From: Octopus vulgaris
Lineage: Eukaryota
Length of the DNA stretch: 64,000 bases
NCBI GenBank assembly: GCA_951406725.2
Contig: OX597815.1
Coordinates: 13,950,001-14,014,000, forward strand
Direction of reading: 5' to 3'
Position 1 is the first letter of the stretch. Every line of letters starts with the position of its first letter. A program made the translations under genes and the position numbers. The notes below the pieces were generated by a model that saw nothing but the letters and a program-made list of their open reading frames with translations, was not told where the DNA came from and did not search any database. Below, piece by piece: positions 11,877-45,439 of the stretch.

Positions 11877-11889
11877 TGTGTGTGTCGCC

Positions 11890-12073
11890 ATCATAGATCG
11901 TTAGCCACTACACACATTTTTTTTCTCTCCTTGTTTTTTTCTGTGTACCTTTCTGTAGAAGAGCGTAGGCTCGAAACGTAAAAGATTTTTCTATTCCTGA
12001 GCGTTATACTAATACATCTGTTTGTTTCGTACATCACCTGTCTTCGTCTTTTGTTTTTTTCGTAAACTCTCCC
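11890..12073 (+). mobile_element. ~185-bp hammerhead-bearing repeat (PLE pLTR/retrozyme-like), family H1
   Basis: Close copies at 36797-36990 (-) and 45235-45415 (-); flanked by (TG)n and (TA)n. Confidence 0.8.
11949..11984 (+). ncRNA. Minimal type-I hammerhead ribozyme motif with variant core
   Basis: cttt-CTGTAGA-a-gagc[gtag]gctc-GAAAC-GTA-aaag: stem I cttt/aaag, stem II gagc/gctc, palindromic ACGT stem III, GUA site. Confidence 0.7.
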
Positions 12074-13659: not shown

Positions 13660-15085
13660 AATCTTCTTTATTTCATTATATTGGCCATAAGGCCTTACAC
13701 GGAGAAAGGAAGATGCAGGCTGGACGTAGACACAATGTTATATGAAATGAAAATGAAAATGATGATTAATGGGAGAAAACACGATGCCCGCCAATCGATT
13801 TGATCTCTTGTATATTATTCATGAGGCAACACATCTCTACACTGTTCACAATAATCAATAACAAAATTCACTAACAAAATGAGGCGCTAAGCCTCTTACC
13901 ATTCGTTCCAAACTCGGAACTTTCAATAACACTGAAGCTTTTCAACATCTTATCACTATTCCTCCTCAACATGGCTTGTGCCCGCATACTACGCCATCAC
14001 CCACGCCTTATTCAAGATCAAAGCGGGAGCCGGGTCGGCGTCGCCCGGGTACAAACGATATTCCTCATTGAGTCCCTTCAGCCTATTCATCACGGGCAAC
14101 GTTGATACCTCCAGAGCTATCTGCTGAGGTCATTCGAGATCCTGTGTGCAAGCTAAACGGGATCCCTTATGGTGCTTTTCCACCACCTTGACAAGGTGGT
14201 GAGCTTACACGCCGGGCAAAATGCTTAACGGTATTTCGTCTGCGTTACGTTGTGAGTTCAAATTCCGCCGAGGTCGACTTTGCCTTTCATCCTTTCGGGG
14301 TCGATAAATTAAGTACCAGTTACGCACAGGGGTCGATGTAATCGACTTAATACCTATGTCTGTCCTTGTTTGTCCCCTCTGTGTTTAGCCCCTTGTGGGT
14401 AATAAAGAAATACGTGCTTTTCCACCACATTTTCTACCTCTCCGTCTCTATAGAAAAAGACCAATAATTCGTCTTCCTCCGGGGTGGGATATCCAATTCT
14501 ACCGTTGGTGGCACAGTTCCCGCCAACGGTATCTCTTCCCCTGCCGCTAGCACAACCCCAACCGACGAGGTTCCGGGACATTCCGGTACTATGTCACCGA
14601 CTGCCGGAAATATCTTGTTTGTCTTCCTCTTCCTCGTTTTTTCTTTTCAACTGAGGGAGGGTGCGTCACCTCTGTGACCGGGAGATTCGCCACCCCTTCC
14701 TCATCCCTAGGATCATTCGGTGAGCACCCATTGTTGCTCACCTTCTTCCTCTGGCGTACCTTCTTTGAGGAGTCCTCCGTCTCCTCGTCCACCTTGCTTC
14801 CCTCTTCTACAGAGGTCTCAATCAACTGCTCCCGCACCTTTCTTTGTTCCTGGGGACAGTTTTTCTTTTTATGGCCAGGCTCCAGGTACCGATGACACCT
14901 AGGGGGCGGCGACCCCCAAGAATCACCGGGTACTTGCACCCGGCCATTTTTTTTAATATCTGGAAAAACCAAGCAGGCTCATTGGGTCCAAAGCATCAAA
15001 GCAGCTGTTGACCCAACCCAATCAGCCGCAGGAAAAACTTTCACATTAAGGAGCTTGGCATCGCTGCCACCCAGACCCCGGGGAG
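13660..15085 (-). mobile_element. L1/Tx1-type LINE remnant with gag-like ORF1 zinc knuckle
   Basis: PPRCHRYLEPGHKKKNCP is a CX2CX4HX4C knuckle with C2 changed to Y, followed by a basic/acidic tail; higher GC than flanks; interrupted by a SINE. Confidence 0.6.
14192..14412 (+). mobile_element. SINE family B inserted in the L1/Tx1 remnant
   Basis: Family match; direct repeat GTGCTTTTCCACCAC at 14172-14186 and 14414-14428. Confidence 0.9.
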
Positions 15086-19311: not shown

Positions 19312-19625
19312 TCACCGTGATCACCGTAACATACCAGGCTATGAGATGTTGCTACACATCGCTGGTCACAATGCGCTTCGCATTGTTTTAGCCTTCAAAT
19401 GACGCGAACCAGTTGGCTAAGCGAGCAGGCCGGCAGAAGAAAGAGTGAGAGAAAGTTGTGGCGAAAGAGTACAGCAGGGATCGCCACTATCCCCTGCCTA
19501 AGTTTCGTGGAATTTCAGGGAGTTTTCGCTGAATAAACACTCACAACCCCCGGTCTGGGAATCGAAACCGCGATTCTACAACGGCAAGTCGCTGCCGTAA
19601 TCACTGAGCCAATGCGCCTCCACAC
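19312..19625 (-). mobile_element. SINE with family-A head and a different 3' tail
   Basis: First ~185 nt match family A; then an unrelated tail ending 'acggtgatcacggtgat'. Confidence 0.75.
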
Positions 19626-30294: not shown

Positions 30295-30525
30295 TAAGAA
30301 AAACAAAAGCGGAAGACAAGTGAGGGAAAAAACAAGCAGGTGTATTAGTTTAACTCTCGAGAAGAATGGAGAAGGTCTTGACGCTTCGATTCTACGTTCT
30401 TCGACAGAAAGGAGTGTGAGGAAGGACAAATGGAGAGAGAACGAGAGAAGCAATGTGTAGGAATTAACGGCTGAACAATATATAAAAATCTAAGTGTGAA
30501 CACGCTAACACGAAAAAACCTGTCA
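30295..30525 (-). mobile_element. Diverged relative (H2) of hammerhead family H1
   Basis: Reverse complement cttt-CTGTCGA-a-gaac[gtag]aatc-GAAGC-GTC-aaga at 30376-30411; paralog at 38272-38450. Confidence 0.6.
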
Positions 30526-36638: not shown

Positions 36639-36990
<352 letters not shown>

Positions 36991-37281
36991 TATGTATGTA
37001 TGCATGTAGGTAAAATAAGTAATGCAATGATATATAACTGGGATAGAAATTTAAAATGCGTAACAACATTATTTAATTCCCATAATATTTTACGATGTAT
37101 ATCCCTAATACACTACAACTAAAATAATATATGGCTGTAAGAATGTCTAAGTATAGTAATATATAATTGTCTTTAATAAGTATATTTGTTTATACATACA
37201 TACAGTCATATATATTCATAATAACGTATATGCAGGGTAATCAGATGCGACCGCAGTAATATGTAACGCAAATACAATACA

Positions 37282-37418: not shown

Positions 37419-37846
37419 ACTTGTGATTGTACAAATATTTAGGAGCAATAAATTGAGACTGAAGCAACTTATCCTTCATTTCAATAGCTTTGAATCTTTC
37501 TGGTCTTTAATGTTGGGACCTGTTAGACGTTGCTATCTCTAGAGGTGTCCATATTGTTAACTGTTTAAATATACGCGTCAAATAATCTAATGAAATTTTT
37601 CTCCATTAAAGTCGACTTCCACAATCTAGACAAGTTGATTTGTATAACTAGGGGATGAAGTTTTCCTTGAACAATTATTAGGGCGTTTGAAGACTAGCAG
37701 TTGTCACTCTGCGGCTTTTCTAAATGTTTTTGTACATCGAATCTGAAAAGCAGTTTGAGACCAAGTAGCTGAAGTTCATAACATTTAATCACTTTATGCA
37801 ATATCAAGTATTTGCTTTTCACTAGTCTAATATTTATATTCCATCT

Positions 37847-38234
37847 GTGGAGGCGCAATGGCCCAGTGGTTAGGGCAGCGAACTCGCGGTTATACGATCG
37901 CGGTTTCGATTTTCAGACCGGGCGTTGTGAGTGTTTATTGAGCGAAAACACCTAAAAGCTCTACGAGGCTCCGGCAGGGGATGGTGGTGATCCCTGCTGT
38001 ACTCTTTCATCACAACTTTCTCTCACTCTTACTTCCTGTTTCTGTTGTACCTGTATTTCAAGGGGCCGGCCTTGTCAATCGCTGTGTCACGCTGGATATT
38101 CCCGAGAACTACGTTAAGGGTGCACGTGTCTGTGGAGTGCTCAGTCACTTACACGTTAATTTCACGAGCAGGCTGTTCCGTTGATTCGGATTAACCGGAA
38201 CCCTCGTCGTCGTAACCGACGGAGTGCTTCCATC
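37847..38234 (+). mobile_element. SINE family A, full copy
   Basis: 15-bp TSD ATTTATATTCCATCT at 37832-37846 and 38235-38249. Confidence 0.92.
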
Positions 38235-38559
38235 ATTTATATTCCATCTATTTTCAATAGGGGAAAATATACATTTAACTTTCGAGAAGAATGGAAAAGG
38301 TTTTGACGCTTCGATCCTACGTCCTTCGAAAGAAAGTAGTGAGAGGAAGAACAAATGGAGAGAGAACAAGAGAAACATTGTGTAGGAATTAACAGATGAA
38401 TGATATATAAAAATCTAAGTGTGAACACGTTAACATGAAACAACCTGTGTAGGAACTTCTAATATTACTGTATCAGTTTGCTATCAGCATTTCCATTCCT
38501 CTACACTGATCATTTAATAAACAATGATCAACCTTTGTTCAAATATGTAGGGAAGAATT

Positions 38560-45234: not shown

Positions 45235-45237
<3 letters not shown>

Positions 45238-45415
45238 AGAGTTTACGAAAAAACAAAAGACCAAGACAGGTGGTCTATAAAACAAACAGATGTGTTAGTA
45301 TAACGCTCAGGAATAGAAAAAGTCTTTTACGTTTCGGGCCTACGCTCTTCTACAGAAAGGGACAAAGAAAAAACAAGAAGAGAAAAAGATGTGTGTAGTG
45401 GCTAACTATCTAACA
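45235..45415 (-). mobile_element. Hammerhead-bearing repeat family H1
   Basis: Copy of 11890-12073; cttt-CTGTAGA-a-gagc[gtag]gccc-GAAAC-GTA-aaag at 45324-45359; (TA)n on both sides. Confidence 0.82.
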
Positions 45416-45439
45416 TGGCGACTGATAGGGGCTAACGAT

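Follow-up and report, generated by a model that had tools for sequence, protein, structure and literature searches.

The hammerheads of Penelope-like elements (PLEs) have a published consensus core with A at position 6 and are described in the same account as slow even with this A6 (PMC4209133). As described, they lie in both pseudo-LTRs (pLTRs) of the element, with a U-rich 5' flank, a short stem I, an extra nucleotide after A9, a G10.1-C11.1 pair and a palindromic stem III, and most copies are solo and truncated. All of these features are shared by a family of repeats in the genome of Octopus vulgaris, which agrees with the published consensus, CUGANGAH, in all but position 6. The only core variant named in the portions of those descriptions used here is the U3-A8 of Schistosoma, whereas the octopus lineage carries U6. 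A natural substitution at position 6 is also known from phage Bcep176 (Perreault 2011, PMC3088659), but the example described is a single phage sequence with C, whereas the octopus substitution is U and is fixed in a retrotransposon lineage with ~15,000 exact-context copies.

Three groups of described elements are close enough to the octopus family for detailed comparison. The Anolis element PAc, of the Poseidon clade, also has a pLTR hammerhead and an AT-rich insertion site, but it belongs to a different clade, its account reports no position-6 change in the sections used here, and cleavage was shown there, whereas here the evidence is the motif sequence (PMC11167929). The same account shows an internal RT start and an uncleaved RNA template, both of which we infer for the U6 element. 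The Neptune clade, as described, shares with it an RT followed by a C-terminal GIY-YIG domain that has CCHH-type residues, as well as a CX2-5CxxC linker, tailed partial tandems and microsatellite targets; the octopus element differs in its U6 core, and its clade is assigned by linker and target, the former of which Nematis shares (PMC8557442). Metazoan non-LTR retrozymes are likewise short, non-coding units with a type-I hammerhead, but their hammerheads are described as canonical, their units as arrayed in tandem and their RNAs as circular (PMC7229834), whereas the octopus copies are pLTR solos scattered through the genome and have an autonomous parent.

The window (the whole 64-kb stretch of octopus DNA that was analysed) contains all five copies of the repeat reported in a first-pass annotation, and T (U6) is found at core position 6 in each of the five. 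The features are as follows.

11886..12073, + strand: subfamily A solo pLTR, 3' end of the U6 Penelope-like element, with (TG)n before and (TA)n after; the 3' pLTR of copies that bear RT/EN is homologous to it
11949..11984, + strand: minimal type-I hammerhead motif, recognised by sequence
11949-52/11981-84, + strand: stem I of this motif (CTTT/AAAG)
11953-11959, + strand: core CTGTAGA, with U6 at 11956
11960, + strand: extra A after A9
11961-64/11969-72, + strand: stem II (GAGC-GTAG-GCTC)
11973-76, + strand: GAAA, overlapping the palindromic ACGU at 11976-79 (read GAAAC-GTA)
11980, + strand: H17, here A; predicted cut after H17
36797..36991, - strand: subfamily A solo pLTR, core CTGTGGA with C3 at 36919; stem I disrupted, stem II with one mismatch
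45235..45427, - strand: subfamily A solo pLTR, start TCAGTCGCC, core CTGTAGA with C3 at 45355; one stem II mismatch
30295..30470, - strand: older subfamily B pLTR, core CTGTCGA with C3 at 30407; GAAGC, stem II damaged
38274..38400, - strand: older subfamily B pLTR fragment, core CTTTCGA (G5>T) with C3 at 38332; GAAGC, stem II damaged, 3' part lacking

The geometry of stem I, core, stem II, GAAAC and GUH that had been ascribed to all five copies is fully intact only in the copy on the + strand; the four copies on the - strand all have post-insertion damage, and the GAAAC claimed for every copy is absent from the two older ones, in which stem II has also decayed. The sequence and a motif alignment bear out the palindromic stem III and place the motif among the minimal type-I hammerheads of the PLE kind. 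The absence of a tRNA head likewise stands, in that ARAGORN found no tRNA in the whole window and the 5' part of the unit is PLE 3' UTR sequence. That no ORF is present is true of the five window copies but not of the family, whose longer members code for RT and GIY-YIG. Rfam searches of window positions 11000-46000 and of one young pLTR gave no hammerhead match, and the main text of an octopus repeat annotation (PMC13282606) makes no mention of a hammerhead or ribozyme. A literature search for a natural A6U hammerhead found none; subscription papers were outside its reach, so that an earlier mention is possible. Lunse et al. 2017 is said to deal with PLE hammerhead variants.

The parent of these repeats can be traced through the genome (2.8 Gb in 227 contigs were searched). 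The 30 loci closest to the window copy have a common, fixed 3' end, mostly followed by (TA)n, and ragged 5' ends. The upstream extension of a few loci, used as a query, yielded 30 further loci, eight of which were refetched at 8 kb; in these eight the pLTR unit is preceded by a CT/CA-rich 3' UTR of ~1.2 kb, and this in turn by broken GIY-YIG and RT frames. An RT query from long copies of subfamily A led to subfamily C, a young relative with an amino-acid identity of 82-87%. Among the 20 loci obtained by this RT-similarity search, 14 have two same-strand motifs ~4.4-4.6 kb apart that flank the coding region, several have open frames of 1,020-1,200 codons in which RT and EN motifs are both present, and the element-strand motifs of the U6 lineage are U6 without exception (34/34). 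Young full-length elements have the U6 core in both pLTRs, and one of them (L132) is a classic partial tandem with a tail, which gives two direct pLTRs. In L132 and a second element (L134) the YIDD and YIG motifs lie within one frame, with Pfam RVT_1 above its cut-off (31.7 vs 29.6 bits) and Pfam GIY-YIG below its own (E 0.007). The EN is preceded by a C-x4-C-x2-C linker, and a CX2-5CxxC linker in this place is common to Neptune and Nematis (PMC8557442).

On this sequence evidence the repeats are solo or 5'-truncated pLTRs of an autonomous Neptune-like Penelope element with RT and GIY-YIG domains, a lineage that must have been active recently, given that nine full-length bodies are on average 98.8% identical. 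The element appears to fit the Neptune clade by its linker and (TA)n target, although Nematis shares the linker and the tree does not contain named references. That RT tree comprises eight element rows and nine homologues (two short segments were omitted), and in it the U6 rows form a clade (98/97) whose sister is an A6 element, L234 (100/99). The latter is a full-length member of a homologous lineage and is 68% identical in RT/EN.

The first-pass annotation had proposed that the U6 core is shared across the family, and that position 6 should be examined in a genome-wide consensus. In an exact 30-nt context the genome has U at position 6 in 14,944 of 15,487 matches, C or G in 385 and A in 158, so that the consensus is U6 and not A6; the U6 state occurs in old as well as young subfamilies and belongs to the family, not to decay in individual copies. 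The reversed control of the U6 30-mer has no match anywhere in the genome, as against 14,944 forward, which shows that the motif is not due to chance. A control substitution in the same context, U4>A, gave 102 matches, and the 158 matches with A6 are therefore near the ordinary background of decay. A BLAST survey of 39 evenly picked 10-kb stretches (390 kb) returned 10 matches, nine of the U6 lineage and one of its sister, and suggests that there are tens of thousands of copies in total.

The sister lineage has the same stem II closed by a 3-nt pyrimidine loop, and its pattern matches 4,085 sites genome-wide; among the first 100 matches listed, 97 have A6 and none has U6. Since this sister keeps A6, as does the published PLE consensus in the form given in PMC4209133, U6 is the derived state. 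What is new in the octopus is a derived A6U core that is fixed through a long-lived and recently active lineage; the kind of retrotransposon and the kind of ribozyme motif were already known. Within the A6 sister lineage there is also a subclade with a U4C core (CCGACGA) that has itself spread (L245:8407-8454, L039:1955-2002 and eight other sampled loci).

Two candidate exceptions to U6 did not survive inspection. One old A6 copy suggested that the GUAG loop had gone together with A6 in an ancestral subfamily, but the neighbours of this copy have U in 20, C in seven and A in three cases (n=30, query included). An A6 revertant in subfamily D was likewise dropped, as the search with the A6 pattern had itself supplied four of the nine D copies, and U is present in four of the other five; G7, moreover, is about equally common among the listed U4>A controls and the A6 matches. 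A comparison with contigs listed no change at position 6, but it also missed the known variation at N7 and so carries no weight; one contig of organism D has the young U6 motif with zero substitutions.

Sampled copies were sorted into six U6 subfamilies of 29, 27, 9, 26, 8 and 42 copies, with identities within groups of 82-99.8%. Their majority letters vary among subfamilies at 3 of 36 motif columns, as against 49 of the 115 flank columns that are ungapped (p=1e-4, Fisher test), or 20 of 69 when the 3' flank alone is considered (p=0.024). Of the three variable motif columns, one is N7, where all four bases occur, and one is H17, which is A, C or U but never G; the third is position 6 in subfamily D, where the variation reflects the biased sampling by which four of the nine copies were picked by the A6 pattern. 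N7 and H17 are the positions that the hammerhead consensus leaves free, and C3, G5, G8, G12, A13, A14 and the palindrome are unchanged among the subfamilies. Although the U6 lineage does not have the CUGANGA core with its A6, every other hammerhead element is present, namely stem I, the extra nucleotide after A9, G10.1-C11.1, GAAA, the palindromic stem III and NUH.

Pairing is intact in 98% of cells among 18 hand-picked copies (16 distinct), and the covariation looked for after the first-pass annotation amounts to one compensatory change, an outer stem I pair that is C-G in one lineage and G-C in the other and that represents a single evolutionary event; stem II, being invariant, gives no covariation, nor does the palindrome. 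An apparent covariation of N7 with H17, perfect in three subfamilies (A/A, C/C, U/U), is broken by E (U/A), D (G/U) and C1 (U/A). In predicted folds stem II is formed, the hammerhead junction is not the ground state, and stem I appears only in subfamily C. A GAGCG...TAATAC motif ~25-30 nt downstream of H17 is kept in all subfamilies and in both the U6 and A6 lineages; the idea that its GAGC acts as a decoy for stem II was rejected, the pairing probability being 0.01-0.1 in three of four folds and ~0.4 in one.

These patterns show constraint on the motif in a replicating lineage. A preference for U at position 6 does not follow from this, since a site under no selection might also remain the same, and C6 is found in 7 of 30 copies of the old subfamily E. 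This last count also bears on the notion that U6 is an adapted core, in which the GUAG loop II or another partner would offset the loss of A6 and restore an activity equal to that of the A6 sister. U6 and the 4-nt GUAG loop do occur together in all six subfamilies, as against the pyrimidine triloop of the A6 sister, and exact matches are more numerous for the U6 lineage than for the sister pattern (15,487 vs 4,085). However, the association amounts to a single instance on a single branch, C6 is tolerated in subfamily E, and the pairwise mutagenesis scans, as far as used here, saw no rescue (PMC9901934); we regard full compensation as very unlikely.

Whether the U6 motif cleaves at all is a separate matter. 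According to the same pairwise study, all single and double mutants in the CUGA region, with the exception of the C3-G8 swap, have low activity and are not rescued (PMC9901934). The natural A6C hammerhead, as reported, retains low activity (kobs <0.1 per min; PMC3088659), and the Anolis PLE hammerhead is described as cleaving only with protein and as dispensable for insertion in vitro (PMC11167929). We think it probable, with some reserve, that the U6 hammerhead has kept a slow cleavage activity, which would require a dimer or the protein of the element. The bolder version of this proposal, an active hammerhead with a CUGU turn in which the GUAG loop, dimerisation or the RT protein of the element makes up for the lost A6, seems to us unlikely.

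The opposite possibility is that A6U killed the ribozyme of what is otherwise the same PLE, and that the motif has been kept as a protein-binding, promoter or RT-handling element. The low activity of CUGA mutants and the lack of second-site rescue (PMC9901934) are in its favour, as are the in vitro insertion of a PLE without need of hammerhead cleavage (PMC11167929) and the proliferation of Naiad PLEs without canonical hammerheads (PMC8557442), each as far as described in the parts of those reports used here. The spread of the U4C subclade in the sister lineage (10 copies sampled) also agrees with it and suggests that cores are relaxed in general. Against a dead fold is the fact that only the positions that a hammerhead leaves free, N7 and H17, change, and that C3, G5, G8, G12, A13, A14 and the palindrome stay. 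On balance we consider a dead motif possible but doubtful.

Truncated copies might have preserved a record of cleavage, and 5' ends were therefore scanned for starts at the cut site. Subfamily A has ~12 such starts (scaled from 6 of 30 inspected, of 61), as against 2,425 read-through copies and 9 starts at a control site; subfamily C has ~38 (scaled from 28 of 30 inspected, of 41), as against 3,163 read-through copies and <=18 and <=27 at other TA sites, where the control matches were uninspected; and the A6 sister has ~5-6, as against 707. The excess in subfamily C is at most 1.4-2-fold, with control counts that do not have denominators of their own, and is explicable by TA microhomology, so that we do not accept these truncations as fossils of cleavage. 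The U6 and A6 lineages are alike in that ends do not clearly accumulate at the cut site in either of them; this might be taken to favour a dead ribozyme, but because the A6 sister has no pile-up either, the test does not discriminate.

The SINE-sized unit that the first-pass annotation had recognised is real, as the 5' ends of the copies show. Sixty-one copies of subfamily A were not selected by their 5' part, and 15 of them that begin inside or after the core were set aside, mostly reflecting search patterns that selected for such copies. The 5' ends of 24 of the remaining 46 read-through copies fall within a 21-nt window, 65-85 nt upstream of C3, with none at 86-100 nt, five further upstream and 17 shorter, which defines a class of ~190 nt. 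The upstream edge of this class is marked by TCAGT at -81, which we take to resemble an initiator. Judging by the clustering of the ends, transcription might start at this TCAGT, ~80 nt upstream of the core.

We propose that the RT primes on nicked (TA)n and begins copying at the end of a pLTR. If it began on the upstream pLTR it would run off at the 5' end of the RNA and give the ~190-nt solos, and a start elsewhere would give the longer 5'-truncated or full partial-tandem copies. A PLE RT has been described as starting internally, near the pLTR-ORF junction, on uncleaved RNA (PMC11167929). Were the template in the octopus also mostly uncleaved RNA, there would be little demand for fast cleavage, and an A6U change that lowers the rate could spread with the fold still under selection.

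The first-pass annotation had read the unit as an independent, non-autonomous, retrozyme-like family, and this interpretation is not borne out, since the unit is the pLTR of an autonomous element with RT and GIY-YIG, its copies are mostly dispersed solos in (TA)n and not tandem arrays, and its motif is minimal and not of the canonical retrozyme type. A remaining form of the idea is a retrozyme or SINE of ~190 nt that is non-autonomous but propagates itself with the PLE enzyme acting in trans, perhaps by way of circular RNA. The discrete size class (24/46), a head-to-tail trimer at one locus and a letter variant upstream of stem I, found in 4 of 15 scorable ~190-nt copies and in 0 of 14 scorable long ones (small samples, with the long copies biased to one query), could be cited for it, and retrozymes have been proposed to be derived from pLTRs (bioRxiv 10.64898/2026.07.22.740005, in the part used here). 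Copies of the same subfamily that bear RT/EN, however, have a 3' end with which the unit is collinear. The 5' ends of the unit are ragged and do not coincide with the cut site, at which a retrozyme monomer should start; (TA)n links the units of the trimer; the hammerhead is of the minimal form; and the genome contains a canonical tandem retrozyme that is separate from this family. We consider an independent unit of this kind extremely improbable. Some trans-mobilisation of solos may nevertheless occur.

The trimer was the only tandem array of the ~190-nt unit among 30 loci fetched (L013:1277-1911; G000:C23:44302055-44302683). Its units are head to tail with (TA)n joints, and the two inner ones start with GG in place of TC before AGTCGCC, letters that are possibly untemplated or cap-derived. 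The canonical array (L150; G000:C1:20000001-20010000, from ~3078) has a 359-bp period with a canonical type-I hammerhead in each unit and seven motifs in both orientations, and represents a true non-LTR retrozyme-like family.

Other repeats were noticed in passing. Another family of minimal hammerheads has the canonical A6 and a longer stem II and lies mostly right after (TAA)n; five copies were met incidentally (L184:2173, L196, L207, L262 and L310). In the window, a SINE (37845-38233) whose head is tRNA-like and whose ends carry a 14-bp direct repeat adjoins the 38272 copy and has a relative at 19436-19589; it presumably resembles octopus SINEs. A different dispersed repeat of ~170 nt, 90-92% alike and partly in close pairs, occurs in the window at 14243-14415, 23005, 23225, 32971, 33155, 60413 and 60716.

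For the role of the hammerhead in Penelope-like elements, the octopus genome offers a natural experiment, in which a young, intact and successful U6 lineage exists beside an A6 homologue and a U4C subclade. If U6 does not cleave, a dead motif under hammerhead-like constraint would point to a non-catalytic job. If it does cleave, mutagenesis would understate the flexibility of the core in an RNP or a dimer, and searches that require A6, which would miss the U6 lineage, undercount ribozymes. Should the CUGU turn prove to be active, standard descriptors would miss whole high-copy families of ribozymes, and a genome that holds U6 and A6 elements side by side would allow a direct test of what the hammerhead does for these elements.
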